NCBI RefSeq assembly: GCF_000341895.1
Contig: NC_020409.1
Location: 1,710,001-1,742,000 of the forward strand
DNA: 32,000 nucleotides
Source: Pseudodesulfovibrio piezophilus C1TLV30
GTDB lineage: Bacteria > Desulfobacterota > Desulfovibrionia > Desulfovibrionales > Desulfovibrionaceae
Reading direction: 5' to 3'
The notes under the pieces were generated by a model, which had not been told where the DNA came from, ran no database searches, and saw only the letters and a program-made list of their open reading frames with translations. Every line of letters begins with the position of its first letter. Positions within the stretch are counted from its first letter, which is position 1. The translations under genes were made by a program, and so were the position numbers. Positions 10,256-32,000 of the stretch are shown piece by piece.

Positions 10256-10270
10256 AGGTATGTTCCATTC

Positions 10271-10295
10271 GGCTGGGCGGCACTGCCGCCCAGCC
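10271..10295 (+). terminator. GC-rich hairpin after the VWA-OmpA gene (attenuator or weak terminator)
   Basis: GGCTGGGCGGC-act-GCCGCCCAGCC is a perfect 11 bp stem, but no T-run follows. Confidence 0.4.
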
Positions 10296-10324
10296 TCATA
10301 GCCTTGGCCAAAGGATCTACCATC

Positions 10325-10924: not shown

Positions 10925-11122
10925 ATGGATGGCAGCACACGCAAAAATCTGAAACCCGGCATGCGGGTCAACATCGTCCTCAAAAAGGACCAACGAACCG
11001 GCACACTCACACAGGGCATCATTAAGAATCTCCTGACCAAATCTCCCACTCATCCGCACGGCATCAAAGTTCGTCTGGAAGACGGGCAGGTCGGGCGAGT
11101 CAAGGAAATCCTCGAAGACTAG
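10925..11122 (+). CDS. YwbE family protein (DUF2196)
   Basis: The 65 aa product carries the characteristic KPGMRVNIVLKKDQRTGTLTQGIIKNLLTKSPTHPHGIKVRLEDGQVGRV. Confidence 0.8.
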   Translation: MDGSTRKNLKPGMRVNIVLKKDQRTGTLTQGIIKNLLTKSPTHPHGIKVRLEDGQVGRVKEILED

Positions 11123-11130
11123 GAAGGACC

Positions 11131-11589
11131 ATGCAAATATGGGTGGACGCCGACGCGTGTCCGAACATCATCAAGGACGTTTTATACAAGGTGGCACAGA
11201 GACGTGATATTCAGCTGACACTGGTAGCCAATTCACCGCTCTCCGTCCCTCAATCCTCACTCATCAGTACAATCCGGGTTGGAGCGGGATTCAATGTGGC
11301 CGACCAGGAGATCATTGACCAAGTCGGGCCTGGCGATCTGGTCATTACAGCAGATATCCCCTTGGCTGATGCCATAGTGGATAAAGGGGCAACCGGTCTG
11401 AATCCTCGAGGGGAAGTCTATACCGAAGAAAATGTGAAGGGACTTCTGCGCATGCGCAATCTTATGGAAGAACTTCGAAGCGGCGGCATGGTCTCTGGCG
11501 GGCCTGCTCCCATAGGACCAAAAGACAGGCAGGAATTCACCAATCAGTTGGACCGATACCTCACCCGACAGGCAAACAAACAAAACTGA
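11131..11589 (+). CDS. YaiI/YqxD family protein (UPF0178/DUF188)
   Basis: MQIWVDADACP...VITADIPLA...GLNPRGEVYTEENV is the typical signature of this family. An AGGAAGGA SD precedes the start. Confidence 0.85.
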   Translation: MQIWVDADACPNIIKDVLYKVAQRRDIQLTLVANSPLSVPQSSLISTIRVGAGFNVADQEIIDQVGPGDLVITADIPLADAIVDKGATGLNPRGEVYTEENVKGLLRMRNLMEELRSGGMVSGGPAPIGPKDRQEFTNQLDRYLTRQANKQN

Positions 11590-11658
11590 ACAGCAGGCAG
11601 CCTGCCTTACAGACTCCCCACCATCTCGGCCCCTCTCTTACGTGAAGAAAGCTTCGAG

Positions 11659-13797
11659 TCAGGCTGTCTCTACTCTGTTCCGTCCCTTTTGCTTGGCCTG
11701 ATACATGGCCATATCCGCACGATTAAACAGATCATCAAAACTCTCTTCCCCATGGTTGCAGACAGAAATTCCCATACTCACTGTGAATCGAATTGTTTCA
11801 CCACTTTCATGCTGCAACTCGACCTGCTCAATGGCGGCCCTGATGCGCTCCGCAGCACCAACGGCTCCCTCCAGCGGAGTATCAGGTAACATAAGCAAAA
11901 ATTCCTCACCGCCAACCCGCCCGAGAATATCCACCTCGCGAACACAGGACAGGACAGTCGAAGCAAGAACTTGCAGCACCTCATCACCAAAAGCGTGTCC
12001 ATAGGTATCGTTGATATTCTTGAATTTATCCGCATCAAGCATCACCAGAGATATTGGGGAGCCACTTCGCTTACTGTGTTTCAGTTCATACTCGGTCATT
12101 TCAATGAAGGTTCTGCGATTAAAAAGCCCTGTCAGTTCGTCTGTGGAGGCAAGTTGTGCCAACTTTTCTTCCGCTTTTTTCCTTTCCGTAATATCACGTA
12201 GAACTCCCACAGCATAATAGGAGTCTCCCACCTGAAAGGCACTGACCGACCTCTCGACCGGAAAGTATTCGCCGTTTTTTCTGATGGCGGGAAGCTCAGA
12301 AATGGAATCAAGAACCGGCCCTTTTCCGGATTGCGCAAAATGATGAAGCCCCTCGAGTGCTGGTTCGATGTATTCGGGAGGAGTGATCAATTCATGCATT
12401 TTCTGCCCAAGGGCCTCTTCATTGGTCCACCCGAAGACTTTTTCCGCGGCCGGACTCCAAAAAAGGATTGTGTCCTGACTGTCTATCATAATGTACGGAT
12501 CATATGTGGCCTCGGCCATGGCCTGAAGTTTTGCCTGCTCGGATTCAAGGGCATTCACGATCTCTCTTTGTTCTGTAATATCATGAATGGTACCGAGAAA
12601 ACGGGTTGGCTCTCCTTTTTCATTACGAAGGTGTTTTCCCTGTCCCTGAACAAACCGAACTCCTCCATCCGGTCGAAGGATTCTGTACTTCAATGAAAAA
12701 GCATTTTCGCCCTTGGCAGATTGTCGGTAGGCCTCTTTCACCCGCACAAGGTCATTCGGGTGCACCTTTTGAAGAAACCCCTGCTCTGAGGGGACGAACT
12801 CATCCTTGGATACGCCAAAGATATTATAGACTTCATCTGACCACCAGAGAGTTTTCCGGCGTAAATCCTGCTCCCAACTTCCAAGGTGGGCGAAGGCCTG
12901 TGCTTCTCCGAGCTTTTCCTTCACATTCTGAATTTCGATACGATGCCGTATGTCCTTGTAACTCAGGAAAAGTCCGATAAGAAGAAGTCCCCCCATGAAA
13001 AGATGAATAGAGAGGGAGTAAGGGGACTCTTCCGGCCACCCACCAACAGGAAGCGCCGCTATCTGCCATGACCCCGAAGGGAAAAACACATCAACCAAAA
13101 CCGGATCGCCAGTGGGATCAAAGAGCGACTCTCTTCCCCAGAAGACCTCACCCTCGGCACCTTTGCCATCTATTCCTCGAATGGCAATTTTCAGCCCGGA
13201 AAGAGCATTTATATTGACGCTTTCGAAAAGGCGATCCATATCGATCACAGCCGAAACAATACCCCAGAAGGAATCTTCCCCTTCCACATTTTCCTTGTCG
13301 TTCTGCCTGACAAAGACGGGAGTACGCCCAATAAGTCCACTCCCTCCCTGAACAAGATCAAGAGGACCGGCAACAATAATACCACCGCTCAACCAAGCCA
13401 GCTGTACCTGTGGCCACTGCTTTGGCAAACTTCGATAATTGACACCCAGCATTTTTTCATTCCCGGCACGTGGGTACATGTAAGCCATGATGAAGTCGGG
13501 TGCTGCTCCGATATTTTTTAAAACAGGTGAGATGCGTAGCGCATTTTCGGCATAGAGCGCGAATTCTTTTTGCGTGAATGTCGGATGGATTGAAATATGA
13601 TTTGCCATCCCCTGTATAAGAAGTAGACCGCTGACAATCTCTTTTTCCAATCCGAATCGAACTGGAGATAATTCTTGTGTAATTTCAACAACTTGCTGAT
13701 TTCGATATCGATATAAGGCTGTTTGCTGAACCACTATATCCATTATGAGGATCAAAATCGTCACGAAAGTGATTTGAAGAAAGGACCGGATCTTCAA
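11659..13797 (-). CDS. Membrane sensor diguanylate cyclase: CHASE-like periplasmic domain, two PAS domains, GGDEF domain
   Basis: The TTG start has an AGGAGA SD, and TM1 is SFLQITFVTILILIMDIVV. A CHASE-like block reads YMYPRAGNEKMLGVNY...AGPLDLVQGGSGLIGRTPVF. Two PAS ends read DITEQRE and DITERKKAEE. The active site is GGEEF, with an RxxD I-site (REVD) five residues upstream. Confidence 0.85.
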   Translation of the reverse strand: MKIRSFLQITFVTILILIMDIVVQQTALYRYRNQQVVEITQELSPVRFGLEKEIVSGLLLIQGMANHISIHPTFTQKEFALYAENALRISPVLKNIGAAPDFIMAYMYPRAGNEKMLGVNYRSLPKQWPQVQLAWLSGGIIVAGPLDLVQGGSGLIGRTPVFVRQNDKENVEGEDSFWGIVSAVIDMDRLFESVNINALSGLKIAIRGIDGKGAEGEVFWGRESLFDPTGDPVLVDVFFPSGSWQIAALPVGGWPEESPYSLSIHLFMGGLLLIGLFLSYKDIRHRIEIQNVKEKLGEAQAFAHLGSWEQDLRRKTLWWSDEVYNIFGVSKDEFVPSEQGFLQKVHPNDLVRVKEAYRQSAKGENAFSLKYRILRPDGGVRFVQGQGKHLRNEKGEPTRFLGTIHDITEQREIVNALESEQAKLQAMAEATYDPYIMIDSQDTILFWSPAAEKVFGWTNEEALGQKMHELITPPEYIEPALEGLHHFAQSGKGPVLDSISELPAIRKNGEYFPVERSVSAFQVGDSYYAVGVLRDITERKKAEEKLAQLASTDELTGLFNRRTFIEMTEYELKHSKRSGSPISLVMLDADKFKNINDTYGHAFGDEVLQVLASTVLSCVREVDILGRVGGEEFLLMLPDTPLEGAVGAAERIRAAIEQVELQHESGETIRFTVSMGISVCNHGEESFDDLFNRADMAMYQAKQKGRNRVETA

Positions 13798-13979
13798 GGC
13801 AGATTCTCCTGCTCGGCATATTCGTAAGGGTGCACATGATCACAATTTCCACATGTGGTAAACTTATTATGCTGCCTGCACTGTGTTTTCAAATTATTAT
13901 ATAATTTTTCATCATGGCAACAGAAAGTCACTCCCAAACCGGAGCCTCCCCCCATCTCGACCGTCTGGCTCCACAGAGT

Positions 13980-16900
13980 TTATTCTTCCGGCGGCATGAT
14001 CTGTTCTATAATAGGATCGAGTAATTCCGTATTATCCGCAGCTCCGAGATCCCCATCGTTTGTGACGGGTTCTTCGAGAAGCGAATTATCCAGACTGTCG
14101 GCAATCATGTCCTGCCCGTTCAGAGTATGATCCAAAGCCTGGGCTAATGTTGCATCCGACCCATCATTCGTCTGGGTACCAAGACCGAGAATATCCGTAT
14201 ACAGTTGGGCCTCAGTGCTCAATCCGAGATCAACGGAAAGGACTTCCACACTGACATTCTCAGTCAAGGTGATGCTTGAACCATCCTGTTCTACAGTGGC
14301 TTCAACAGTCAAATCGAGCAACCCGGTAAACCCCTCGGGAGGATTCAGCGAAAGCCCCGGCACTTCGTCGGAAGAAAGCGTCCAAGATCCTCCCCCATTG
14401 TCTTGCCCTGCCGTCAAGCTGCCACCGTCAGGAACACCTGAAATCGTCACTGTAAGCAACTCGCCCGGTAAATCTGTCTGCGCATCTATGGAAAGAGCGA
14501 TAGGCTGGTCCTGATCGCCCAAAACATCGAGTACCGAAAATGTCGGCACATCAGGATCACCAATGACATCAACATTCAATGTCACTGTCGTGGAAGCCTC
14601 CGAAGAACCATCCAGAGCTGTTGCCGTGACTGTCAGGTCAAAATCTTCAGCGCTGTCAGGAGGCGGGGTCAAGGTCAATCCGTCAAGATCGGCCGCAAGC
14701 AGTGACCATGAACCATCGGGATTCTGTGTCCCGGCAGACAACGTCGCGTCTGTCGGCACACCTTCGATCGTTATTTCAAGAAGCTCTGAAGTATCCAAAA
14801 GGGATGTCTGAATATCCAAGGAGATGGCTGTATCCTCAAGCCCAACAGCCGGAAGAACAACAAGATTCGGCGTGTCCGCAACGGGCAGGATGGAGAGCGG
14901 CAGGTCAACCACAACCTCGGCTTCGGCCGCACCATCAAGGGCCGTGGCTGTCACTGTCAGGGTGTAATCCCCACTCTGATCCTCGGCCGGGAAGAGACGA
15001 AGGCCATCAAGATCGGCCGCAAGCAGCGACCACGAACCATCAGGATTCTGTGTCCCGGCAGACAACGTCGCGTCTGTCGGCACACCTTCGATCGTCACTT
15101 CAAGCACTTCAGAGGTGTCGAGCAACGCAGCCTGAATATCCAAGGAGATGGCTGTATCCTCAAGACCCACTGCCGGAGCGACAATCAGATTCGGCGTGTC
15201 CGCAACGGGCAGAATGGAGAGCGGCAGGTCAACCACAACCTCGGCTTCTGCCGCACCATCAAGGGCCGTGGCTGTCACTGTCAGGGTGTAATCCCCACTC
15301 TGATCCTCAGCCGGGAAGAGACGAAGGCCATCAAGATCGGCCGCAAGCAGCGACCACGAACCATCGGGATTCTGTGTCCCGGCAGACAACGTCGCGTCTG
15401 TCGGCACACCTTCGATCGTCACTTCAAGCACTTCAGAGGTGTCGAGCAACGCAGCCTGAATATCCAAGGAGATGGCTGTATCCTCAAGACCCACTGCCGG
15501 AGCGACAATCAGATTCGGCGTGTCCGCAACGGGTGTAATGGAAAGCGATAAATCAGAAATGGTTTCTGCTTGAGAGGCTCCATCCTGAGATGTTGCCGTC
15601 ACAGTAATTGTATAATCTCCACTCTGGTTATCAGCCGGAGTCAAGGTCAATCCAGGAAGATCTTCCGGTGCCAGAGTCCACGATCCATCCGGATTATTTA
15701 TCCCGGCGGAAAGGGATGCTCCTTCCGGCAACTGAGAGAGAGTCACACTCAGAACTTCCGAGATGTCAGTCAAGGAAGCCTCGATATCCAACGGGATAGT
15801 CGTATCTTCATCACCGGTCGCAGCGTCCACAATTAACGTTGGCGCATCGGCCACGGGCGTAATACTCACATCAAAAGTTGCCGAAGTTTGAGCAGTCTCA
15901 CCCGTCTCAGGTTCCGTGCTTGTGGCTGTGACGCTCAGCGTATAGTCACCACTCTGATTTTGGTCGGGAAGAAGTGTCAATCCAGGCAGGTCCGAGGCGG
16001 AAAGAGTCCACGATCCATCACTATTCTTCGTCCCGGCAGAGAGCGTTGCTCCTGCCGGAAGATCGGAAACCGACACTTCAAGTATTTCACCAGCATCACT
16101 CACGCTGGCCTGAAGGTCGAGCGGGATGGCCGTGTCTTCATCGCCCACCACGGATTGTGGGGAGAGATTCGGATTATCAGCCACAGGAATCACCTCGACT
16201 GAGAAATCAGTTCCTGTCGAAACAGAGTCGCCATCAGCTTCCGTTACGACTATTTCAGCATGGATATCGATACTTCCCGAGAAATCCAGAGGAGGTGTGA
16301 TGGTCAAATCAGGAAGATCTTCCCCCTGCACAAGCCACGATCCATCACCCTGAACCACTCCGGCAGAGAGAGATGCCCCTGCGGGAATACCCGTCAAGAC
16401 AGCAGTAACCGTCTCAGAACCATCCGTATCGATAGAAGAATAGCTGAGTTCAATAGGAATGGCCGTGTCTTCATCGCCACTCGTACCGATGGAATCGACC
16501 GGAACGTCATCAGCCTCGCCCTCCACACTAACCGTCACCGCCTGAGTGGAAACAGCAACCTCACCAGTGGACTCCTCAAGAGTATACACCGAAAGGGTCA
16601 ATTCGAAATCCCCGCTCGCATTGGGGGGAGGTGTAAAGGTCAACCCGTCAAGTTGTCCGGGAGTAAAAGTCCATGATCCGTCTCCATTGTTGATACCAGC
16701 AGAAAAAAGACTGTCAGTCGGGACACCTGAAAGCGTTAACGACGTTGTCTCCGACCCATCGGTATCCACAAGATCAACATCAATATTCAATGGAATGGCA
16801 GTATCTTCGAGACCGGATGCATCCGTCACCGAGATACTTGCCGGATCAGCCACGGCCTGTATGCTGACACCGAGATCACTGGAAAATGAGGATTGCGTTC

Positions 16901-19900
16901 CGTCGGACTCCTCAACCACGGCGTCCACGGTGAACGAGAAATCCCCATGCGCATTTTCAGGCGGCGAAAACTGAACTTGATCCAATTGATCCGGTCCCAC
17001 CTCAAACCGCCCGTCACCCAAATCTGTGGCCCCGAGAATCGTCGCCCCCGAAGGCAGATTGCTAATGACGACCGAGGTTATCTGTTCCGATCCGTCCGTC
17101 ACATTGACATTGAGGTCCAAAAGGAATGGTGTATCTTCAGTACCTTCCGGATTCCCCAAGCTGATCTGAGGACTATCAACAACCGGGTCGAGGGTGGCAG
17201 TCACAACGGTACTGGTCTGTTGTGTCAGGCCATCTTCACCGGTCTTGGCTATGGAAACAGTAAAATCAAGCGCACCGGCAAAATCAGCGGGTGGCGTTAT
17301 TTCAAGATTCTCCAGCAAGGAGGGATCATCGCCAGAGATAACCCACTGATCGTTAACTGGATCATAGTAGCCGGTATTCGGCCGCGCCCCTTCCGGGAGA
17401 TTGCTGATGATGACGCCATACTGGCTGCCACCTGTCCCGAAATCAGCCGAAATATCCACGGCAAAAGGCGAATCTTCGGACCCGGTCGGCTGGTTGACCT
17501 CAAGCGTCATGGGGGTTCCGATTATACTTCCATCAATAATGGTTCCCGGATCCGGCAAGCCGCCGCCCAAAAGATCACCACCCAAATCGATCGACGCCGA
17601 AACCTGTAAGAGCACACTCTCGGAAGTCACGGCAGTATCTCCGTTTTCCGCCTCGGTGGAAACCGCGTGGAGCGTGGCCAACAAAGTTGTGCCCAACGCG
17701 AGAGTATCAGAAGACAGGCTCAAACCGTCGAGTTGATCCTCGGTCAACAGATAGGAACCGTTACCAAGGTTGATGCCTGCCGACGGTGCTACATTCAATC
17801 CTAGAAATCCTGAAAGAATGAATGAGAGAGACTCAGAACCATCGGTGTCTGTCAAAGAAGCCTCTGCACCAAGGTTCACAAGCCCCAACAGACTGGTTGT
17901 TTCCAGAAGAGGCGCGTCAGCCACAGCATGAACTTCAACATGCAATTGTCCTTCAGAGACAACCGTGGCACCGCCCGACTCCTGAATGGTCGCCTGGACC
18001 GTCAAATCGAAATCAACATCCGAGTTCTCTGGCGGAGTGACCGTCAAGCCCGCAAATTCACTGGGAAGTATTCTGAAGACACCGGGATTATCCGGGTCTT
18101 CCGTTCCGGCAGAAAGAGTCGCCCCCACGGGCAGCCCGGAAACATCGACCCACAAGACCGTCTCCGAACCATCTGCATCAGTCAGCCCTGGGTCTACATT
18201 GAGCGCAATGGCGGTATCTTCAAGCCCTCCGGCAGTTCCATAGGATGCCGAACCGCCGACACTACCGCGATCGGTCTGGTCCACAACCGGATCGACCGTC
18301 ACCGGAACGCTATACTCTTCCTGCGATTGTCGTCCGTCATCTTCCTGAACGACAACTGTCACACTCAGGTCAAAAGTACCGGAATAATCGCTCGGAGGAG
18401 TCACAGACAGAGTCGGCATGTCTTCAGCGGAAACAGCCCAACGACCATTGCCGATAAAAGTACCGGCACTCAGACTCGCTCCGGCGGGAATATTACTCAC
18501 AACATAGCTGATTGTCTCGGAACCATCGGTGTCAGTGGATTCTGCCGTAAAATTGAGTGAGATGCTCGTGTCTTCATCCCCCCGCGCTCCCTCCATGGTC
18601 ACGATCGGAACATCAGGATCACCTTGCAGAGAAACATTGATGTCTTGCGGAACGGAATACACTCTGTCGCCATCGGCCTCGATAGCCAGGGACCGGGCCG
18701 TCAGGGTAAAGTCGACGTTGGAATCAGGTGGAGGTGTCATTGTCAGAGAATCGAGATCACCGGAAGGAATCAACCAGTTCCCGTTATCAAGCATGGTTCC
18801 GGCAGAGAACGTTGCTCCCTCAGGCACTCCCGAGAATTCGACATACAGACTCTCCGAACCATCCGCATCCTCCAATTCGGCACGCACAGTCAGTGCAATT
18901 TCCGTATCTTCTGTTCCTTGAACATCAACCACCGTGATTTCGGGGATATCCGCTACCCCGGTAACACCGACGGTGAATCCGGCAGTACGAGAAACCGTGT
19001 CGTTATTGGATGATTCCGTGGACGTCGCGGTAAATTCCAGCGCTATTTCCCCGGAAAAATGCTGTGGCGGCGTCAAGGTCACTGTTCCGAGATCAGCCGG
19101 GTCAATGGTCCATGAACCATCACCGTTATCGGTCCCACTCGAAAGGGATGCCCCGGCAGGCACACCTGATACCGTGACCTCCAATGTTTCGGAAAGATCA
19201 GTATCCGTCAGTTGGGCAAGAAGATCGAGTTGCACGGGAGTATCTTCAAGGGTCGTCACGTTGTTCGCCGTAATGATCGGCGCATCCGCGACAGCCTCAA
19301 AGGTGACATCAAAACTGCGAGAGGTCGTTCTGGTGCTCCCGTTCTCCGGTTCCAACGTGGTCACGTCAAAGCCCAAATTCACTGTTCCCGAATAATCCTG
19401 CGGCGCTCGGATTGACAAACTGTCCAGGCTCTCAGCCGGGACTGACCAATCACCGCCCAAATCAGTCCCGCCGACAATGGAAAAGCCTTCAGGAACACCA
19501 GTAATCACAACACTCTCAATGACTTCAGAGTCATCTCTCACCGAAGCTGATAAATCGAGAGGCACATCATTGTCTTCATCCCCTGACACATCCCTTGCAC
19601 GGCTTCGCGCCGCATCAGCAACAGCATTGACCGTCACGCTGACCGGCTCCGAGGCAGTGGCTATATCTCCATCGTTTTCAGTAGCGAGGGAGGTGACTGT
19701 GATGTCGAAAGTGCCACTGTAATTGGAAGGCGGACGAACATACAGATTCCCGATATCTTCGGAAGAAACATCCCATGAACCATCCGGGTTCTGTGTCCCA
19801 ACATTGAGACTTGCCCCTGTCGGCAGATCGGTAATCGAGAAGGAAAGGGACTCCGAAGAATCCGTATCTGTCAACGCTCCTCCTGCCTGAACCTGAATCC

Positions 19901-22166: not shown

Positions 22167-22181
22167 GGCAAACCTCGTTTG

Positions 22182-23486: not shown

Positions 23487-25609
23487 TAGTTGGACTCCTG
23501 CGAAGTAGTGATAGTGGCGGATGTGGTCTTGGGAGCGGGTGGCGGTGTCGGTTTGCCAAAGCTGATCGGCATCCCCTGGTCCAGAAGCAGGACCTTGTCA
23601 CACCGAGCCAAGACATCTCGATCGTGGGAGGAAATCAGGACAGTCTTCTCACCTCGGAACTCATCGAGCAGCTTGTAAAAATTTTCCTGGTATCTGGGAT
23701 TATGGAAAATGGGTTCATCCAAAAGCAATATTCTGGGATTCTTGAGAAGTGCCCTGGCAATGCAAATTGCCTGCTGCATATCGTGTCCCACCCGGATACC
23801 GCGATCCAGATACATGAAGGAGTCAAGCCCTTCCGGAAGGGTATTGACAAGTGATCCTGCTCCCGCTTTCTCCAGAGCGTGCAAGAGTTCCTCTTCCGTG
23901 GCGTCAGACTTGGCTATGAGAAGATTACTCCGCAACGTTCCTCGGAACGGGATATCGTTTTCAGGCAAAAACCCGAGCCAGGAGCGGACATCTTCGGGAT
24001 GGAACTGCCGAAGGTCTCGCCCGCCGATCAGGACACTGCCACCCTGTGGCTGAATAAGACCAGCAACGGTTTGCAGGAGAGTGGTCTTTCCCGCTCCATT
24101 GGGACCGGTCACACCAATGACCTCTCCCTCCTCTATCTGGATTGAAACACCGGCAAGAGCGGGTTCGCCATTTGAGGTATGCCGGAACACAACCCGGTTG
24201 AGAGCAACTGTCGGCGGAAGATCCTGCAATGGAGAAACCAGAGACGCATCAAGATTCTCTCCCTGAAGTTCCATGAGCCTATCCATCTGCCGGGCGGAAT
24301 GCCGGAGTTGGAAATAACGGCTGAACGCAGTCCCCAGAGTCTGGGTCGGACCGGTGATCCGCCAGATGAACATCATTGACCCGATCATCGCTCCAGGCGT
24401 GATGGAACCCTCAAGAACCAACCACATTGCCACGGCCAGTGTCGCCAGCGCCGTACCCGATGACATAATCCTGGAAAGGATGCGGAAGCTCGCGGAAATC
24501 AGGGCGTAATTTCTGTTTGCAACTGCGGACCGAGCCATTACCCTGGAATAATTATCAATCCACCGCTCTTCCAGACCAACACCAATCAGACCTCTTAATT
24601 TATCAATGGTATCCTGCTGAATAGCGCTCCTTTCACTGTTGAGCTTGGCTGCCTTTCGCATAGCCCTGTCTTCAAGCATACTCAGAAAGGGGATCGTCAT
24701 GCAGTAGAGGATCAATGCTGTCAGAGGCACCAGAGCCAGGCGTCCGCCCATGACCCCCACGGCACCGAGATACAAAAGGATAAAAGGTGCATCCAGTAGC
24801 GTTGTGGCAAAGTTTCCCGAAACAAATTCCCGAACCCGTTCCAGGTCACGGAGACGCAAAAGGTGCGCATCCGTACTGCTTTTTGTCAGAATAGTTGTTG
24901 GTAGACTGAGAATCTTCCCGAAGGATTCTACCCCTGAGAGATAGGCCAGGCGTCCTCCGGCGTATGTCAGCAAACGGGACCGGACCAGCCGAAAAACCAT
25001 GCCGAAGATTACGGCTATCGACACACCACCGCCAAGGTAAAGCAAACCGGTTGAAGAATGGGCCGGGATGGCTCTGTCATAGACATAGCGCGTGAAGAAC
25101 GGGAGTGCCAATCCAACAACATTAATGAAGAAACTCGCGATGACAGCCCCGGAAACCTGACTCCAGAGACCGGAGACTGTCCAGGAAAGCCAGGAACCTT
25201 GAGCGGCTCCTGAAGCCAGATCGACTTTGGGAAAAACCAGGATGACAACGCCAGAACGAGGCGGATCGCTTTCCGGGGTCAAAACGGTCACAGTCTCCCC
25301 GGTCACATGGATGGCTGGAGTACTCAAGTCACCTATTTCCTTTGCGGAAAGGACTTCAGTATCATACCCGAGCCTGGCAAGAATATCCCGAAGGTCTTCA
25401 AAGCCGAGTGGCGTCCCTAGCGGCAAGGCGGACAAGAACTCCTTGGCCGATCCGTGCCAGCAGATCGAAGCAAGAACGCTGACCAGTGCATCAAGATAAG
25501 GCGAAGGTGGCAGATTTGCATTTTCCAGGGCAAAGAAAAAGTTTCCCTGACAGGATATTTCATCTTCGCAAAACTCCAGAGGGTGCATTTGATGGAAGCG
25601 TAAACTCAT
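23486..25609 (-). CDS. T1SS permease/ATPase with an LssB-type N-terminal C39-like domain. Walker A, Walker B and H-loop are intact; the signature motif is degenerate.
   Basis: The start is set at MSLRFHQMHPLEF (ATG 25609), which forms an ATGA overlap with the upstream ABC stop. The N-terminal domain reads SPYLDALVSVLASICWHGSAKEFLSALPLG...PAIHV. The TMD carries YVYDRAIP. Walker A is GPNGAGKTT, Walker B ILLLDEP and H-loop SSHD. The position of LSGGQ reads VGHDM, and the Q-loop reads PEND. Confidence 0.9.
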   Translation of the reverse strand: MSLRFHQMHPLEFCEDEISCQGNFFFALENANLPPSPYLDALVSVLASICWHGSAKEFLSALPLGTPLGFEDLRDILARLGYDTEVLSAKEIGDLSTPAIHVTGETVTVLTPESDPPRSGVVILVFPKVDLASGAAQGSWLSWTVSGLWSQVSGAVIASFFINVVGLALPFFTRYVYDRAIPAHSSTGLLYLGGGVSIAVIFGMVFRLVRSRLLTYAGGRLAYLSGVESFGKILSLPTTILTKSSTDAHLLRLRDLERVREFVSGNFATTLLDAPFILLYLGAVGVMGGRLALVPLTALILYCMTIPFLSMLEDRAMRKAAKLNSERSAIQQDTIDKLRGLIGVGLEERWIDNYSRVMARSAVANRNYALISASFRILSRIMSSGTALATLAVAMWLVLEGSITPGAMIGSMMFIWRITGPTQTLGTAFSRYFQLRHSARQMDRLMELQGENLDASLVSPLQDLPPTVALNRVVFRHTSNGEPALAGVSIQIEEGEVIGVTGPNGAGKTTLLQTVAGLIQPQGGSVLIGGRDLRQFHPEDVRSWLGFLPENDIPFRGTLRSNLLIAKSDATEEELLHALEKAGAGSLVNTLPEGLDSFMYLDRGIRVGHDMQQAICIARALLKNPRILLLDEPIFHNPRYQENFYKLLDEFRGEKTVLISSHDRDVLARCDKVLLLDQGMPISFGKPTPPPAPKTTSATITTSQESN

Positions 25610-27240
25610 GCCACCACCTCCATTGCTTCTGATTTGACGGTAACCGTACAATGTTCATCAAGCTTCAGTGAGTGTTCGAACACTGTTCGTAAGGTTGAAT
25701 CTGTCGGAAGCAGAAGGATTGTCGGCCCTTCCACCTTTTGGAGCATCTGGGCAAGCAACTGTTTTCCTGCAAGGTCTATCCCTTCATCTGCTTCATTGAG
25801 GAAAAGCAGGACTGGGTCCTGAGTCAAAGCCCGAACTATTGCCATGCGTTGGATGGTCCCCATTTCGAGCGGTCCACCCACGACATCACCGACCTGGGTT
25901 CGAAAGCCGTTAGGCATGGAATGGATAAATTTTGTCAATCCGACCTGATGAGAAAGCTCAATGGCCTTCAACTCCCTGGAAGGCTGATACAACGTCAGAT
26001 TGTCCATAATGGAGCCTCGGAACACCTGACTTCGGCGCGTCACGAATGCCACGGCGCGGCGATAGGTATTTCGGGCATAATTGGGCAGAGGATAATTGCC
26101 GACCAACACCTGTCCCTTGTCAGGCTGACGGCTCCCGATAAGCAAGCCCATGAACATCGGAAGGCTCGCCCCCATGGAATTACTCAACATGAACTTGCTC
26201 CCAGAAGGAATATCCATGTTGAATGTATACAGATTATCCCCCCGAGAAACCTGTGCATCCTTCATGACTATGGAACCGTCTTCAGGGGCCAATTCGGAAT
26301 CAACAGAAAAGGTATGATCTTCTTCGAGTTCCCAGAATTCATCCACGCGGTCCCGTGCCACCCAAATTCGTTGCAGATGTGGCCAAAGCCCCATCAGAGC
26401 GACGACCGGGCTAAGACTCCGCCCTGCGAGGATAGTACAGGCAGCAAGCCCGCCTGTGGTCAATTGGCCGTCCATAACGAATAAGGCTCCCACTACCACG
26501 GTCGCGATGGTGGTCAGTCCGCCAAGGAGCGAAATACAATCGGAAATAGTATGTCCTAGCCTGTCGAGCCGAGTGCGTTCCACAATCAGGCTCTGTGATT
26601 TATGACGGAAAATACGCAGCATCAATCGCTCACCTCCCAGGCATTTGATGGAGGAAAGCGTATTGAGAATATTAGTTATGAAATTCATCCTGTCGTCATC
26701 GGTCTCACTTGTCTTCCGTGACGCCGTTCGCAGGCTTCTTCCCGCTATCATTGTCGAGAGAATGGCCACCACATAGATTGTCAGTGGAACAAAAACAAGG
26801 TTCCCTCCGATATACCATATCGCCCCGAGGAAAAGCAGAGTAAAAGGCAAGTCGAACATGACCAGAAGGGTCTGCCCGGAATAGTGTTCACGCATACTCG
26901 CAATATCGGCAAGTCGCTGTTTGAGTGCCCCACTTCCCATATTCAACGCCTGGGCCAGATCGCACTCAAAGAGCTTGCGCATGGCCAGCAGCGCTGATGA
27001 ATACTCAAAAAATTCCCCGTAAAGGGAGAGTATATATGTTCGCATGAACCGGAATATTCCTTCGATAACCAGTGCCACAATGGCCCCGAGAAAGAGCAAT
27101 GCGGCCGTACTGAGGGCGGAATTTGGCAGAATGCGATCATAGACCTGAAGCAGGACGATCGGGACCGCCAGACTCAAAAGGTTTATCAGGAAACTGAGGA
27201 TGGTGATATCAAGACGTATTCCAAAAGTGAGTGTTTTCAT
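25606..27240 (-). CDS. T1SS-type ABC permease (no N-terminal accessory domain) with a degenerate, probably non-catalytic nucleotide-binding domain
   Basis: The TMD has the T1SS hallmark LLQVYDRILP. Aligned by eye to the neighbour, the NBD motifs are all altered:
- Walker A is SNSMGASLP (Lys replaced by Leu)
- Q-loop Gln is replaced by Arg (VTRRSQVF)
- the signature is LEMGT
- Walker B is LLFLNE (Asp replaced by Asn)
- the H-loop is LLPTDS (no His). Confidence 0.85.
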   Translation of the reverse strand: MKTLTFGIRLDITILSFLINLLSLAVPIVLLQVYDRILPNSALSTAALLFLGAIVALVIEGIFRFMRTYILSLYGEFFEYSSALLAMRKLFECDLAQALNMGSGALKQRLADIASMREHYSGQTLLVMFDLPFTLLFLGAIWYIGGNLVFVPLTIYVVAILSTMIAGRSLRTASRKTSETDDDRMNFITNILNTLSSIKCLGGERLMLRIFRHKSQSLIVERTRLDRLGHTISDCISLLGGLTTIATVVVGALFVMDGQLTTGGLAACTILAGRSLSPVVALMGLWPHLQRIWVARDRVDEFWELEEDHTFSVDSELAPEDGSIVMKDAQVSRGDNLYTFNMDIPSGSKFMLSNSMGASLPMFMGLLIGSRQPDKGQVLVGNYPLPNYARNTYRRAVAFVTRRSQVFRGSIMDNLTLYQPSRELKAIELSHQVGLTKFIHSMPNGFRTQVGDVVGGPLEMGTIQRMAIVRALTQDPVLLFLNEADEGIDLAGKQLLAQMLQKVEGPTILLLPTDSTLRTVFEHSLKLDEHCTVTVKSEAMEVVA

Positions 27241-27346
27241 GGGGTATCCTGGCTTGATGGCTCCATTGCAAAAAAAGATGGCACTTTAAAAATTTTTACG
27301 CATACTCCTTTATAGTTGATATGAGAAGTGCACTGCCATTATAATC
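27241..27346 (-). promoter_or_regulatory. AT-rich leader/promoter region of the T1SS-adhesin operon
   Basis: This is 106 nt between the terminator and the ATG at 27240. A minus-strand TATAAT lies at 27343..27338, but I see no convincing -35. An AGGA SD lies 9 nt before the ATG. Confidence 0.3.
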
Positions 27347-27394
27347 AAAAACCGCATTGTTCGTGACGTTACATGTCACAAACAATACGGTTTT
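27347..27394 (-). terminator. Strong intrinsic terminator after the two-component/HD-GYP operon
   Basis: A 20 bp stem (27348..27367 pairing with 27375..27394) with a 7 nt loop. Its two imperfections are G.U pairs in the minus-strand RNA but C.A mismatches in + strand RNA. A UUUUU run follows on the minus strand. The hairpin starts 28 nt after the stop at 27423. Confidence 0.7.
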
Positions 27395-27422
27395 GTAGAT
27401 AAACGCGATGGGATGAAAGGGG

Positions 27423-28529
27423 TCAGGCCATGGAATCCCCTTCGAAGCAATAAAGGCCATGGCATTCCTCATCCAAAAAGGTGTCCTTGATATGCATTAT
27501 TTTATCTAAAATTCTCATAAACGCGTCCGAGACATCTGGGTCGAAATTGGTTCCACGCATCCCTGCCATGATTTCCAATGTTTTATCCACCGAGAATGCC
27601 TCCTTATAGGGTCTGGGAGACAGCAGTGCATCAAAGACATCGGCAATGGAGACAATCCGTGCTGCAAGAGGAATCTTCCGGCCCGCCAGCCCTCGGGGGT
27701 AGCCTTTCCCATCCCACCGTTCATGGTGGTTAAGGGCGATAACCTCTCCGAGCCTCAAAATACCGGAAGGATCACCCTCAAGAATACGGGCACCGATAGT
27801 GGTGTGTCTTTTCATGATTTCCCATTCGTCCGGGTCCAGTTTGCCCGGCTTGAGCAGGATTCTATCAGGAATACCGATCTTGCCGATATCATGCAGTGGC
27901 GCGGCATACAGGATATGCTCGGCAACCGTATCGGAAAGGCCCATCTCGAGCGCGATAGCCGCAGAGTAATGACTCATGCGCTGAATATGCGCCCCTGTAT
28001 CCTCATCCTTGAATTCAGCTGTCCTGGAGAGACGAAAGATCGTCTGGAGTGAAGAGGAACGAAGCTTTTCGAGAGCCTTGGAAAGCTGTGCTGTCTTGCG
28101 TTCGACCTCTCGCTCAAGCTCTTGATGATAATGTATCAACTGTTCTGAATAATCCTTCAACTTGACGAGAGTCCTGACTCGTGCCAGCAGTTCAGTCCTG
28201 TCCACCGGTTTTGTCAGAAAATCATCGGCTCCGGACTCCAGGGCCTGCACTCTGTCGGACACATCATCCAGGCTGGTGACCATGACCACGGGAATGATAC
28301 CGGTTTGAGGGTTTTCCTTGATCTGCTTTGTCGCAACAAACCCGCTGATCCCCGGCATCATGACATCCATGAGAATGACAGCCGGGGAATATTTCACAGA
28401 GAACTCGACCCCTTCGTACCCATCCTTGGCAAGTTTCACGGAATACCCTTCAGGTATAAGCAATGCCTCCAGAAGTCGGCGGTTGCGGTCCTCATCATCG
28501 ACAACCAGGATAAGTGGCCCGTCAGACAT
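27423..28529 (-). CDS. Response regulator with an HD-GYP output domain (RpfG-type c-di-GMP phosphodiesterase)
   Basis: The receiver reads LILVVDDE...MDVMMPGISG...TKP. The HD-GYP motifs are LHDIGKIGIP and HHERWDGKGYPRGL. The start overlaps the upstream stop by 8 nt (ATGTCTGA) and follows a GGAGA SD. Confidence 0.9.
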   Translation of the reverse strand: MSDGPLILVVDDEDRNRRLLEALLIPEGYSVKLAKDGYEGVEFSVKYSPAVILMDVMMPGISGFVATKQIKENPQTGIIPVVMVTSLDDVSDRVQALESGADDFLTKPVDRTELLARVRTLVKLKDYSEQLIHYHQELEREVERKTAQLSKALEKLRSSSLQTIFRLSRTAEFKDEDTGAHIQRMSHYSAAIALEMGLSDTVAEHILYAAPLHDIGKIGIPDRILLKPGKLDPDEWEIMKRHTTIGARILEGDPSGILRLGEVIALNHHERWDGKGYPRGLAGRKIPLAARIVSIADVFDALLSPRPYKEAFSVDKTLEIMAGMRGTNFDPDVSDAFMRILDKIMHIKDTFLDEECHGLYCFEGDSMA

Positions 28530-29982
28530 TTTTCATCTCCTCTCTCCCCTCACCTGTGGGGCGACATGTTCCTGACAAAGGAACTGCCATATGAAAGCCG
28601 AAACTTGCATCAGCCTCATTTTTTTCGCACCAAACCCGTCCATCATGAAGTTCTGCATATTTTTTGGCCAAAACCGGGCCAATTCCCAATCCGGGACCGG
28701 CCCCGTAATGAATTCCCGAAAAAGGTTCGGTAATATCCGAACACGCCAAATGGCTCACATCCGTCTTCGAAAGGGTCACGGTCAGAGACAGCCAATCCCG
28801 ACTATCTTGTTCCGCCAAAAATTCAGCCGGAGGCAGGGAGGACTCCAAATTCACATGAAGATGAGCACCCTCCGAGGCCATACGAATGGAAGTATCGATC
28901 AAATACAATATGGATTGGTGAATCTTGTTTTGATCAAGTGCCATCATCGGTAATCTTTCAAGATCGGAACTCAAGATAATCCCACATTGTAACGCGCGCT
29001 CCTTGACCAGGGAAAGAACCCGACTCACGATCTCATCAGGCAGCACCGGGCGGCAATCTAGTGATAACCGCCCTGCTTCCACTCGGGCCAGCGCAAGAAT
29101 CTCATTGACCATTTCATTGAGAAGCTGTGCGCTCTGTTCGATATCCTTGACATACCCTCGCTGTTTTTCATTCAGCTCCCCGTAGTATCTGTCCGTCAGT
29201 ATTTGTGAAAAACCCAATATCGAATTGAGCGGTGTCCTGAACTCGTGACTGACACTGGCTAGGAACAGGGCTTTGACCTGAATGGCGGACTCCGCTTCTT
29301 CCTGTGCGGCTTTCAGCTCTTTATTAGCGTCGGCCAGCACCTGAACATGGCGGTGTTCACGATAAAAAACACCATTCCAGATGCCGAGCAAAAATAAAAT
29401 CCCCCCCCCCAACAGGGCATTCCTCTGGATATGATGACCCGAATTCTCATCACCGTCATGTACCCGTGAAAGGTGATTTTGTGACATTTCAACAGCGAGC
29501 TTAAACCGCTCCCTGAGACTCTTGTACTCATCGGAAACAAGAAATGACGCAAAAGCAGACCCCACAGAAGAACCATTCAAGAGAGAAACTTCCAACTCCT
29601 CAAGCTGTCTGAAGGATGTGACGACATCATGCAAAATCCCCTGTTCCGCCACGGGAATTTTCTCGATCTGAGCCAAAACATTCACCATGCTCGCTTGCAA
29701 CCGGGCTATGGAAGGGGACTGCTCTCCCTCTTTCATTTCTCCCGAATTCACTATGGCCGTATGGAGTTTTTCTTCGAAATATCGAAGATCGCTCATCACC
29801 AGTAAAGCCCTAATCTCTGCATCAAGATGCTCATCATATCGTCGTTCCATATCAACGATAAAAAAAATTCCCAGAAAGACGATGGAGATGGACAGAATCA
29901 ACCGTCCCCACAAGGTGACGAAAAGAGGGGCCTCAAAACCGAAAAAAAGACCTCGTGAGGAAATTCTTTGCAGAATACCCAT
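28522..29982 (-). CDS. Membrane histidine-kinase-like protein with an intact DHp H-box and a degenerate catalytic ATP-binding domain
   Basis: Two TM segments (RLILSISIVFLGIFFIV and LLGGGILFLLGIWNGVF) flank a region of about 150 aa. The H-box is ASVSHEFRTPLNSILGF. Aligned to the neighbouring kinase, the N-box FNLLSNA becomes LYLIDTS (both Asn lost). G1 DTGIGI becomes LSKTDV. G2 (GPGLGIG) is retained. Confidence 0.8.
   Translation of the reverse strand: MGILQRISSRGLFFGFEAPLFVTLWGRLILSISIVFLGIFFIVDMERRYDEHLDAEIRALLVMSDLRYFEEKLHTAIVNSGEMKEGEQSPSIARLQASMVNVLAQIEKIPVAEQGILHDVVTSFRQLEELEVSLLNGSSVGSAFASFLVSDEYKSLRERFKLAVEMSQNHLSRVHDGDENSGHHIQRNALLGGGILFLLGIWNGVFYREHRHVQVLADANKELKAAQEEAESAIQVKALFLASVSHEFRTPLNSILGFSQILTDRYYGELNEKQRGYVKDIEQSAQLLNEMVNEILALARVEAGRLSLDCRPVLPDEIVSRVLSLVKERALQCGIILSSDLERLPMMALDQNKIHQSILYLIDTSIRMASEGAHLHVNLESSLPPAEFLAEQDSRDWLSLTVTLSKTDVSHLACSDITEPFSGIHYGAGPGLGIGPVLAKKYAELHDGRVWCEKNEADASFGFHMAVPLSGTCRPTGEGREEMKNV
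29401..29410. repeat. Homopolymer: C10 on +, G10 on the coding strand, inside the kinase-like gene
   Basis: Read directly: ...aaaataaaat cccccccccc aacaggg... It encodes the GGG of LLGGGILF in the second TM segment. It is the longest homopolymer I found in the window. Confidence 0.95.
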
Positions 29983-30353
29983 CAGGCTGCCCCGAGATAT
30001 TCATGCAGAAGCGCAACCAATCGACGCGTATCTATCGGTTTTGTCATCAGATCATTACAGCCGGAAGCACGAATCTCGCTTTCCTCAGTCGGAAGAGAAT
30101 ACGCCGTGAGAACAATTATGGGGATGGAATTGTTGGAGGGCAATGCTCGTATTCGCTTGATAGCTTCCAACCCATCCATCACCGGCATCTGAATGTCCAT
30201 GAAAATAAGATCAGGATGCTGTTCTTCGGCCATGATGACCCCGTCCAGCCCGTTCATTGCCTCCAGGGCCTGGTAACCCAACGCTTCCACAAGGTCTCTT
30301 ACCAACTTCAGGCTACGGGGATCATCCTCAACAACAAGAACTTTTTTCGACAT
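29982..30353 (-). CDS. Single-domain CheY-like response regulator
   Basis: The 123 aa product reads KVLVVEDD...LIFMDIQMPVMDG...TAY...TKP. An AGGAG SD overlaps the upstream stop. Its own stop overlaps the next start (TGATG). Confidence 0.9.
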   Translation of the reverse strand: MSKKVLVVEDDPRSLKLVRDLVEALGYQALEAMNGLDGVIMAEEQHPDLIFMDIQMPVMDGLEAIKRIRALPSNNSIPIIVLTAYSLPTEESEIRASGCNDLMTKPIDTRRLVALLHEYLGAA

Positions 30354-30358
30354 GAGTG

Positions 30359-32000
30359 CTACTCCTGATTTTCCGGTCGAGGATTCGTGGATTGCTGACC
30401 GGGAAACACGAAAACAAACCGACTGCCCTGATCTTCACCTGAACTCTCAGCCCATATGGTGCCGCCCTGTAATCGCAAAAGCTGGGCAGAAAGGGGAAGT
30501 CCCAGACCTGTCCCCGGAGTTTTATCGATTTTGCCCGATTTGACCTGATAAAAGGAATCAAAAATCTTGAAAAGTTGCGATTCGTCAATCCCGATACCCG
30601 TATCCGTGATCGAGACGAGAAGCCAATCAGATTGATCTGAAGCCAATTCTCCCCAAAGTGTCTCTGGGACCTTCTCCCGTACCGAACCAAAATCAAGCCG
30701 ACTTGCAGCAAGAGTTATTTGTCCGCCATCCGGTGTAAACTTGGAGGCATTGGAAAGGAGATTGAACAAAACCTGCTTGATCTTCCGTTCATCAGCACTC
30801 ACCATCCCTATATCTTCTGGAAAATCCGTCACCAACTCTATATTGTGTTTTTTTGCCTTTTCCCTGATATAAATGAGACTTGTGCTCAAAAGCATATCCA
30901 GATCAAATTGGGAAAGCTGGATTTCCATTTTGCCTGCTTCAATCTTGGAGAGATCAAGAACATCATTGATCAGTGCCAGAAGGTGCTGCCCGCTTTGCAG
31001 GATATCGACGATATATTCGTCCTGTTTCTCTGTCAGCGGTCCAAAGTATTTATCCTGAAGTACTTCTGCAAAACCGATAACCGCGTTGAGTGGAGTCCGT
31101 AATTCATGACTCATGCTCGCCAGAAAATTCGACTTTGCCTGACTGGCCGCTTCCGCGATTTCCTGGGCAGTCTGAGCCTCATTACGTGCGTCGATGAGGC
31201 TTTGCTCAGACCGTTTGCGCTCTGTAATATCCGAAATAAAACAACACATGAAATGAGTCTCTTCAGCGATCAGAAAATAGGTTACCAATTCGACGGCAAG
31301 CCGGGTTCCATCACTGCGCCGCAGCATCGTTTCAAAACTCACTCCTTCGAGTTTGCGTGCCCGTTCGAAAACTTCTGTCAAATGTTCCGAATCAAGATCA
31401 GGAAGAATTTCGTTGATGGAAAGGGTCAACAATGCATCCTTCTCCCTCCCTATCTGCCTGACCGCACCATCATTGACATCGAAAATGGAACCATCCGGCC
31501 GTACCCAATAAATCCCCTCTCGAGATCGATCCACAGAAAGGCGGGTTCGCCGTAAGGCTTCATCCATTTGCTTTCTTTTAGAAATATCCTCTATCACTGA
31601 AATGAAATGGATTGGTTCACCATCTATGTCTCTCATGAGCGAGACTGTGAGATTGACCCAAACCAGACCTCCGTCCTTGGTCCAGTACCGTTTTTCCATT
31701 CGGTAGTTCTGAATCTCGCCGGAAATCACTTTGCCGACCAACTCCAGATCCGTTGCCAGGTCATCGGGATGAGTGATGTCCTGAAAGGTCTTGTGGATCA
31801 ATTCACTCCTCGGGTATCCGACAATCTCACAAAGCTTGTCATTAATTCGAATCCAGGAACCATCCAATCCCACGTGGGCAAGCCCGACTGCCGCCTGATC
31901 AAAAGTGGCCCGAAAGCGCGCCTGGCTGATCTGAGCAGCCTTTTCAGCCTTCCGTATTTCGGTCAAATCCCTCAGTGTCGCAGTGAAAAAGCGCTCTCTG
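30359..32000 (-). CDS. Cytoplasmic multi-PAS sensor histidine kinase. Partial: the N-terminus lies beyond the right edge.
   Basis: The frame stays open to the window edge. Upstream of the track start (a TTG) it reads ...RERFFTATLRDLTEIRKAEKA, the end of another PAS domain. Two further PAS ends read EDISKRKQ and SDITERKRSE. The H-box is ASMSHELRTPLNAVIGF, with a complete N-box (NLLSNASKF), G1 (DTGIGI) and G2 (GTGLGL). Confidence 0.85.
   Translation of the reverse strand, partial: RERFFTATLRDLTEIRKAEKAAQISQARFRATFDQAAVGLAHVGLDGSWIRINDKLCEIVGYPRSELIHKTFQDITHPDDLATDLELVGKVISGEIQNYRMEKRYWTKDGGLVWVNLTVSLMRDIDGEPIHFISVIEDISKRKQMDEALRRTRLSVDRSREGIYWVRPDGSIFDVNDGAVRQIGREKDALLTLSINEILPDLDSEHLTEVFERARKLEGVSFETMLRRSDGTRLAVELVTYFLIAEETHFMCCFISDITERKRSEQSLIDARNEAQTAQEIAEAASQAKSNFLASMSHELRTPLNAVIGFAEVLQDKYFGPLTEKQDEYIVDILQSGQHLLALINDVLDLSKIEAGKMEIQLSQFDLDMLLSTSLIYIREKAKKHNIELVTDFPEDIGMVSADERKIKQVLFNLLSNASKFTPDGGQITLAASRLDFGSVREKVPETLWGELASDQSDWLLVSITDTGIGIDESQLFKIFDSFYQVKSGKIDKTPGTGLGLPLSAQLLRLQGGTIWAESSGEDQGSRFVFVFPGQQSTNPRPENQE

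Follow-up and report, generated by a model that had tools for sequence, protein, structure and literature searches.

The question raised by this locus is whether enzymes that make and break cyclic di-GMP (c-di-GMP) control the type I secretion system (T1SS) that lies between them. The window, a stretch of 32,000 nucleotides, is chromosomal DNA of Pseudodesulfovibrio piezophilus C1TLV30 (formerly placed in Desulfovibrio), a deep-sea sulfate reducer, and its proteins are exact matches to WP_015414932 to WP_015414940. In a 20-kb block of genes that are all encoded on the minus strand, two ATP-binding cassette (ABC) proteins, ABC1 and ABC2, an HlyD-family adaptor and a giant repeat protein are flanked by an HD-GYP response regulator on one side and a GGDEF cyclase on the other. 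An earlier note on this DNA had listed these genes, from a PAS kinase to the cyclase, as a giant-adhesin T1SS locus, and had inferred an undescribed way of coupling c-di-GMP to the adhesin. Pfam and NCBIfam searches bear out the gene list (each gene is present, on the same strand and with the stated domains) as well as the T1SS locus with a giant repeat protein (TIGR01843, tandem-95). The inferred coupling is unsupported, given poor co-conservation, a DvhG/DvhD pair elsewhere in the genome, separation of the units and the lack of any effector found. We favor a reading, with a probability of roughly 0.6, in which three units adjoin one another and the c-di-GMP enzymes feed the general cellular pool. 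The block is thus viewed as three probably separately transcribed units, without a single integrated system.

The division into three units is probable and draws on overlaps and gaps between genes, a terminator hairpin and a promoter-like site. In the first unit, genes for a sensor kinase, a CheY-like receiver, a kinase-like protein and the HD-GYP protein overlap or almost abut. In the second, ABC1, ABC2, hlyD and the giant gene are linked by an ATGA overlap (the ABC2 start overlaps the ABC1 stop), a 1-nt overlap of hlyD with the ABC2 stop and a 15-nt gap between hlyD and the giant gene, and this cassette is predicted to be translationally coupled. About 25 nt past the HD-GYP stop codon is a probable intrinsic terminator (27338..27394, minus strand), formed by a perfect hairpin of 20 bp with a U-run on its 3' side. 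Its RNA fold has a predicted energy of -33 kcal/mol (z = -5.4), and 0 of 200 shuffled sequences were equally stable. It is a probable insulator of the phosphorelay operon from the secretion operon. The same inverted repeat is preceded by an A-run and followed by the U-run, the form of a strong and possibly bidirectional terminator; it could alternatively be read as a protein-binding palindrome. The third unit is the cyclase gene. Within the 182-bp gap 5' of it there is a sigma-70-like promoter sequence, TTGCCA-16-AATAAT (13893..13920, minus strand), which scored 10/12 in a consensus scan and is a consensus match only. A weak terminator-like hairpin (13930-13945) precedes this site, and another terminator-like hairpin (11592-11606) lies 3' of the cyclase gene.

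We did not identify a c-di-GMP effector in the block. Pfam searches found no PilZ, MshEN or degenerate GGDEF/EAL domain there, and alignment of the intergenic regions with those of a sister species found no conserved operator-like element. Neither the c-di-GMP riboswitches (GEMM-I and GEMM-II) nor any other Rfam family reached its gathering score anywhere in the window, and the ABC1 leader gave no GEMM match at E ≤ 10. Riboswitch control of the cassette was ruled out on these grounds.

Conservation in close relatives separates the secretion genes from the signalling genes. The cassette (ABC1, ABC2, HlyD and giant gene) was found in the same order in six Desulfovibrionales lineages. The HD-GYP and GGDEF neighbours are kept in two of the six, P. 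piezophilus and one sister, so that their co-conservation with the cassette is poor. In the other four lineages no c-di-GMP gene lies beside the cassette, although for two of these only the upstream side was seen: in a Maridesulfovibrio sp. it carries an integrase and CRISPR-Cas genes, and in Desulfovibrio sp. UBA2564 MFS and NQR genes. In a Halodesulfovibrio lineage the cassette is flanked upstream by a TRAP transporter and an aldehyde dehydrogenase and downstream by DUF190, an ArsR-type regulator and RND efflux genes; in Desulfobaculum bizertense, by oxidoreductases upstream and an ECF sigma factor downstream. Mobility genes occur near some cassettes (an integrase at locus L004, a transposase fragment at L006 and IS1595 at L093). 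A scan of a genome collection with an HlyD alignment recovered two close relatives; its other matches were single-ABC T1SS loci, which we reused as controls.

The cassette belongs to a wider class of T1SS with two ABC genes. A metagenome scan with an ABC1 profile returned at least 80 loci, and the listed matches are 30-35% identical, none of them from the close clade. Every locus that is long enough encodes a short ABC, a long ABC and HlyD, often together with a tandem-95 giant gene, which lies beside the ABC-ABC-HlyD genes in 33 of 81 sampled two-ABC loci. The flanks of 73 non-redundant lineages, 683 kb in all, contain seven open reading frames (ORFs) with c-di-GMP domains, or about 1 per 100 kb. 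We judge this density to be ordinary background, with no enrichment of c-di-GMP genes beside the sampled class. A c-di-GMP gene within 1.5 kb of the cassette was seen at only five of the sampled loci, namely L001 (the lineage of the window), L092, L095, L120 and L173. At L095 (1878-4271, Microvirga sp. TS319) a MHYT-GGDEF-EAL gene is directly upstream of the cassette. Two Microvirga genomes carry the cassette, and the MHYT-GGDEF-EAL gene is present in TS319 and absent from M. terrae (L177). At L173 (16029-17777) a GAF-HD-GYP gene is immediately 3' of hlyD, and at L120 (8178-9476) the neighbour is a GGDEF gene.

The same sample bears on the Lap switch, in which a LapD receptor controls a LapG protease. 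The hidden Markov model (HMM) for LapG was built from nine proteins that adjoin LapD-like genes; five of these were checked in Pfam and all five are Peptidase_C93. No link to LapG or LapD was found in the two-ABC loci of the 73 lineages. Among the single-ABC T1SS control loci, a LapD-like or DvhD-like gene is present in 14 of 75 and a LapG-type gene in 12 (11, plus one of DvhG type). The known Lap association is clearly visible in single-ABC loci by the same method; the two-ABC class has no comparable association. True Lap loci with both LapD and LapG can also encode tandem-95 repeat proteins (L075, L089). The LapG HMM also finds the DvhG-type protease at L039 (8e-27), beside a PAS-HD-GYP protein. 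In this Rhodospirillales metagenome-assembled genome (12420-15279) a single-ABC T1SS is followed by the DvhG-type protease and a 719-residue PAS-HD-GYP protein, and we regard it as a Dvh-type switch outside the Desulfovibrionales, in agreement with the reported distribution (Font et al. 2026; PMC13090378).

The earlier note had stated that no LapD- or LapG-like ORF is visible, and locally this holds. The LapG HMM gave no match at E ≤ 1, either in the window translated in six frames or in any sampled two-ABC locus, and neither the LapD (LapD_MoxY_N-HAMP-GGDEF-EAL) nor the DvhD architecture was found in the window with Pfam and NCBIfam. In the 10 kb past the right window end, the upstream side, there is no LapG- or LapD-like ORF; oxidative-stress genes, a methyl-accepting chemotaxis protein (MCP) and a cytochrome are found there. 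At the scale of the genome the argument is weakened, since a DvhG/DvhD pair is encoded elsewhere. In Desulfovibrio the role of LapD is established to be filled by DvhD, a dCache-PAS-HD-GYP receptor that works with the LapG-like DvhG, and in D. vulgaris a remotely encoded adhesin (DVU1545) is a DvhG substrate (Font et al. 2026; PMC13090378). The P. piezophilus proteins are WP_015416032 (DvhG) and WP_015416033 (DvhD), and they adjoin a T1SS ABC (WP_015416030) and an HlyD (WP_015416031) (PMC13090378 supplement). This locus is a separate single-ABC T1SS about 1100 accession numbers from the window. No adhesin gene was found within four genes of the pair, and because of this its substrate must be encoded elsewhere. 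Nothing suggests that the giant protein of the window would be cleaved by this pair.

The giant protein (13980..22166, minus strand) has 2728 residues and is acidic, with 477 Asp and Glu against 35 Lys and Arg, and it contains no Cys. It scores 157.5 bits with the NCBIfam model NF012211 (cut-off 90), which identifies it as a tandem-95 repeat protein. Residues 195-2645 (14232..21584) form 22 tandem immunoglobulin (Ig)- or cadherin-like beta-sandwich repeats of about 100-108 residues (22 domains with a repeat HMM; Big_9 and Cadherin_4 in Pfam), many of which bear a DTDGSE-type acidic motif. RTX nonapeptides were not identified (no match to GG.G.D or to PF00353), and the pattern [TAP]AAG is absent from all 2728 residues. 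Export of this protein by the adjoining ABC and HlyD proteins is something that we infer from translational coupling and the recurrent gene order. Within the repeat region, 14683-15547 is a recent tandem duplication at the DNA level, with a 324-bp (108-residue) unit in 2.7 copies at 93% identity. Metagenome contigs L001 and L002 from the same organism both end within the giant gene, where the repeats possibly disrupt assembly.

The N-terminus had been described as an acidic low-complexity region of about 190 residues rather than a folded plug. Its acidity (net charge -37 over residues 1-190) and the lack of a plug stand, the latter from an AlphaFold model; the first 75 or so residues, however, are a conserved module. 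This module (residues 1-78; 21933..22166) consists of a helix at residues 16-45 followed by an EQPFGxRKDD motif. The N-terminal stretch of about 75 residues is 46-59% identical among Desulfovibrionales relatives, which share the aligned pattern MAD..EExLR..QAAE..EDA..L.AEE...EQPFGxRKDD. The module may be a recognition or anchoring element. The helix and motif are common to the giants of Desulfovibrionales two-ABC loci, and none was seen in the Microvirga or Pikeienuella proteins. It is followed by a variable Ala/Pro-rich acidic linker (residues ~79-194; 21585..21932) that is predicted to be disordered, has no Pfam match and cannot be aligned among relatives. In an AlphaFold model that draws on four orthologous N-termini the helix has a predicted local distance difference test score (pLDDT) of 70-85, residues 49-175 are disordered (below 50) and the first beta-sandwich repeat reaches about 90. 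Foldseek searches with the N-terminal model returned generic Ig-like folds only (E ≥ 1e-3). A homology search with residues 1-200 returned no matches, not even the protein itself, probably as a result of composition filtering. The substrate does lack a Lap-type retention module, as had been proposed, and also a di-alanine cleavage site. At the other end is an acidic non-repeat tail of about 83 residues (13983..14231) with a clade-conserved AQxLDxTLNG motif and no Pfam or NCBIfam match; it is presumed to be the T1SS secretion signal.

The transporter genes are unusual. ABC1 (25606..27240, minus strand) is a short T1SS ABC of 544 residues without an N-terminal domain, with a match of 85 bits to ABC_membrane and of only 27.6 bits to ABC_tran. 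Its nucleotide-binding domain lacks Walker A, the Q-loop and the H-loop, has Asp replaced by Asn in Walker B and carries LEMGT as its signature, and is predicted to be dead. ABC2 (23486..25609, minus strand), a long T1SS ABC of 707 residues by Pfam and NCBIfam, has intact Walker A and Walker B motifs and an intact H-loop; alignment to canonical ABC nucleotide-binding domains shows that LSGGQ is replaced by VGHDM and that the D-loop is degenerate. Its N-terminal domain of about 150 residues is conserved throughout the two-ABC class and is tentatively C39-like, given a weak profile match to 3b79 (E 1.1) and weak Peptidase_C39 matches in 5 of 20 family members. Sequence searches with this domain against PDB gave noise only besides that weak profile match, and a single-sequence AlphaFold model had a pLDDT of 39.6. 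The best NCBIfam match of both ABCs is LssB (TIGR03375), with 294 bits for ABC1 and 360 bits for ABC2 against a cut-off of 693. Both are below the cut-offs of the named T1SS subfamilies (LssB, HlyB TIGR01846 and PrtD TIGR01842), and they appear to be divergent relatives of LssB outside the family as curated. The HlyD-family periplasmic adaptor (22182..23486, minus strand) is confidently assigned (TIGR01843, 378 bits against a cut-off of 208.65). Pfam searches did not identify an OEP/TolC outer-membrane channel gene in the window.

Loss of LSGGQ is shared by the class. It is missing from both ABCs in 70 sampled two-ABC lineages (L096-L175, L093, L095, L177), where the signature is typically LPRGIKQ in ABC1 and MPTSLLQ or FSASFLQ in ABC2, and most of these proteins have retained both Walker motifs and the H-loop. 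Loss of the whole ABC1 ATP site is an additional feature of the Desulfovibrionales clade.

The flanking enzymes look active, and they do lie directly on either side of the secretion genes, where the earlier note had placed a maker and a breaker of c-di-GMP. The REC-HD-GYP response regulator (27423..28529, minus strand; HD_5 124 bits, Response_reg 97.5 bits) aligns to the active PmGH structure 4mcw (E 9e-61); all metal ligands (H, HD, H, HH, D) are conserved in this alignment, as is the GYP motif, and hydropathy indicates no transmembrane segment. Judged by these residues, it is a putatively competent RpfG-type c-di-GMP phosphodiesterase, and like the RpfG-type enzymes it has all catalytic residues and adjoins a kinase operon. 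It was considered as a DvhD-like receptor, and this was ruled out by its intact catalytic residues and the lack of a membrane or dCache part; the DvhD receptor 9rc0 carries SQ where the protein of the window carries HD. On the other side, the cyclase (11659..13797, minus strand) is a CHASE-PAS-PAS-GGDEF membrane protein with transmembrane segments (GGDEF 169.6 bits, CHASE 63 bits, and PAS). It has a GGEEF motif and an RxxD I-site (REVDILGRVGGEEF at residues 620-633), as do the PleD- and WspR-type cyclases, here combined with sensory CHASE and PAS domains. In comparison with the RpfG, PleD and WspR types, the two enzymes are themselves ordinary and are unusual only in bracketing a T1SS cassette.

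Three further signalling genes belong to the first unit. The CheY/DivK-like single-domain response regulator (29982..30353, minus strand; Response_reg 92.4 bits) has a divK-like UniRef name. Next to it is a histidine-kinase-like protein of 486 residues with two transmembrane segments (28522..29982, minus strand). Its HisKA domain (72 bits) has an intact H-box, the N-box and G1 box are lost in alignment with the neighbouring kinase, and HATPase_c reaches 22.9 bits against a cut-off of 26.4. It is probably a phosphotransfer or phosphatase partner. The sensor histidine kinase (30359..32000, minus strand) continues past the right window end, and the window holds its C-terminal part (PAS-PAS-HisKA-HATPase_c in Pfam). 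The 535-residue ORF read as a PAS kinase (30359-31966), which had no match in an exact look-up, is the C-terminal half only, an artefact of the window end; metagenome contigs L001 and L002 show the full protein to be a membrane protein of 1062 residues with HK_sensor_dom_bact and several PAS domains.

From these parts we propose the following working model. The first unit would be a phosphorelay made up of the 1062-residue sensor kinase, the CheY-like receiver and the kinase-dead HisKA protein, with the REC-HD-GYP phosphodiesterase as its output. The second unit would be a self-contained secretion cassette of the two-ABC class, in which ABC2 may supply ATP hydrolysis and substrate recognition, ABC1 may be the structural half of a heterodimeric channel, and HlyD would connect the two ABCs with an outer-membrane protein of the TolC type whose gene lies elsewhere. 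The giant protein would leave C-terminus first and be stiffened outside the cell by Ca2+, as is standard for T1SS substrates. It has no folded plug, no [T/A/P]AAG site and no RTX repeats, and would therefore not be held or released by a LapG- or DvhG-type protease; it may be released, or be held in some other way by the N-terminal helix and PFGxRKDD module. The third unit would be the CHASE-PAS-GGDEF cyclase with its own promoter-like site. Both enzymes would feed a cellular c-di-GMP pool that includes the DvhD receptor of the separate locus, and any influence on the cassette would be indirect or lineage-specific. The bracketing is most likely specific to P. piezophilus and its sister and does not characterise the secretion system.

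Several points weigh against this reading. In the metagenomic sister (L092) all nine genes occur in the same order, with proteins that are 41-82% identical (ABC1 77%, HlyD 82%, HD-GYP 79% and, also colinear, CHASE-PAS-GGDEF 57%), and this retention of nine genes is more than expected for unrelated neighbours. Both outer flanks differ in the sister: nif/anf genes lie downstream, and the upstream side has a fragment of a transposase. On the assumption that c-di-GMP-related genes make up about 1% of all genes, the chance that both immediate neighbours are c-di-GMP enzymes is about 1e-4, a figure calculated post hoc. The c-di-GMP genes within 1.5 kb of the cassette at L095, L120 and L173 point the same way. 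In addition, what ABC1 and ABC2 each do and what becomes of the secreted protein are, as drawn above, points that we infer, and the transcription-unit boundaries are probable predictions. A lineage-specific, dedicated local c-di-GMP module would account for the block kept in the sister between different flanks, for two immediate neighbours that look like active c-di-GMP enzymes and for the sporadic independent adjacencies in Microvirga sp. TS319, L120 and L173. Such a module would control expression, secretion or retention of a Lap-independent adhesin through an undescribed effector, candidates for which are the nucleotide-binding-dead domain of ABC1, whose clade-wide loss of the ATP site in the Desulfovibrionales leaves a pocket, or an unlinked transcription factor. 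However, the dead ABC1 is also present in the four lineages without neighbouring c-di-GMP genes, searches of the block yielded neither an effector domain nor a riboswitch, the units are set apart by a terminator and a promoter-like site, the intergenic regions are unconserved with the sister, and the class as a whole shows no enrichment of c-di-GMP genes. We consider dedicated control unlikely. It is improbable that a recruited local module directly controls secretion or surface retention of the plug-less giant, for instance through c-di-GMP bound at the dead nucleotide-binding domain of ABC1 or at the signature-less ABC2/ABC1 interface; if true, this would be a second, mechanistically different coupling of c-di-GMP to a T1SS adhesin.

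The bracketing might instead be a functionless result of insertion, if a mobile cassette landed, in the ancestor of the two species, between signalling units that already adjoined each other as an ordinary c-di-GMP locus. The unrelated contexts of the cassette elsewhere, sometimes beside mobility genes (L004, L006, L093), would fit this, as would the difference in G+C between the giant gene (53-59%) and the flanking signalling genes (47-50%), although the higher G+C may simply reflect repeats rich in Asp, Gly, Ala and Thr. We regard insertion as rather doubtful. Control from a distance is very improbable. In this case the giant would be a substrate of the distant DvhG/DvhD, as DVU1545 is in D. 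vulgaris (PMC13090378), and the genome does encode the pair, with no adhesin gene within four genes of it. The giant, however, has no [T/A/P]AAG site, its conserved di-alanine occurring in a QAAE context inside the helix, and AlphaFold predicts no folded retention domain. It also has a dedicated T1SS of its own, and a LapG/LapD link is seen in none of the 73 two-ABC lineages and often in single-ABC loci. On balance, the three-unit reading is retained.

The locus was compared with the known systems closest to it. The Lap system of Pseudomonas fluorescens (LapA, LapBCE, LapG, LapD) likewise has a giant Ig-like repeat protein beside an LssB/LapB-like ABC and an HlyD-type adaptor. Whereas Lap uses a single LapB-type ABC, the locus of the window has two, neither with LSGGQ; it has no nearby counterpart of the outer-membrane component LapE, its substrate lacks the retention module, the [T/A/P]AAG site and RTX repeats, and LapG and LapD are missing here and in all sampled two-ABC loci. 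The Dvh system of D. vulgaris (DvhA/DVU1545, DvhG, DvhD; PMC13090378) is from the same order and also involves a T1SS adhesin and an HD-GYP-domain protein, but DvhD is a membrane dCache-PAS protein with a degenerate HD motif, whereas the HD-GYP protein of the window is soluble, carries a REC domain and has all its catalytic residues.

Two other exporters combine a pair of ABCs with one adaptor. MARTX export in Vibrio (RtxB, RtxD, RtxE, TolC) is an atypical four-component T1SS that requires both ABCs and the adaptor (PMC3034196), and the locus matches its architecture of two ABCs and one adaptor for a very large substrate, with TolC encoded elsewhere. The likeness is one of architecture, and there are differences: the gene order is ABC-ABC-membrane fusion protein in the window and ABC-membrane fusion protein-ABC in rtxBDE, one ATPase domain is dead here, and in place of a toxin the substrate is a protein of Ig-like repeats that has no RTX. 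The NHLP bacteriocin exporters also have two adjacent ABC genes (TIGR03796/TIGR03797), one with an N-terminal C39-type domain, and an HlyD-like adaptor (TIGR03794) (PMC6959600). Against these models the proteins of the window score 111-181 bits with cut-offs of 709-853, far below their LssB scores, and the substrate is a protein of 2728 residues as opposed to a leader-peptide bacteriocin.

Genes on either side of the block were also identified. Directly upstream of the sensor kinase, beyond the right window end (L001 2774-6481), is an oxidative-stress cluster that encodes a Fur/PerR-like regulator, rubrerythrin, desulfoferrodoxin, rubredoxin and a Roo-type flavoprotein, and beyond it are the MCP and a multihaem cytochrome. 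The corresponding flank of the sister species is different. On the left, divergent from the cyclase gene, are genes for a small DUF2196 (YwbE-like) protein and a DUF188 (YaiI/YqxD) protein (10925-11589, plus strand), and further left are housekeeping genes for an epimerase, LptD, MutL and alanine racemase. Also encoded (9203-10255, plus strand) is a protein that resembles a lipoprotein: a signal sequence is present, a vWA-like region is weakly matched (VWA_2, E 0.055), and the C-terminus is an OmpA peptidoglycan-binding domain. It was considered as a partner of the cassette and rejected, as it is absent beside the cassette in the sister. An antisense ORF of 450 residues (9224-10576) has no family match and is probably spurious.

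In summary, a link between c-di-GMP and this cassette, if true, would add, next to LapD/LapG and DvhD/DvhG, a second route by which surface attachment is tied to c-di-GMP, and would be relevant to the biofilms that corrosion-causing sulfate reducers form. What was found speaks mostly against a general link. The firmer result, and the more interesting by-product, concerns type I secretion itself. The LssB-like two-ABC T1SS class is widespread and uncharacterised, and our limited literature searches did not find a description of it. Both of its ABC subunits lack LSGGQ, and in the Desulfovibrionales one of them appears to be ATP-dead. These features raise the questions of how such transporters hydrolyse ATP and by what means the giant proteins remain attached to the cell or depart from it.

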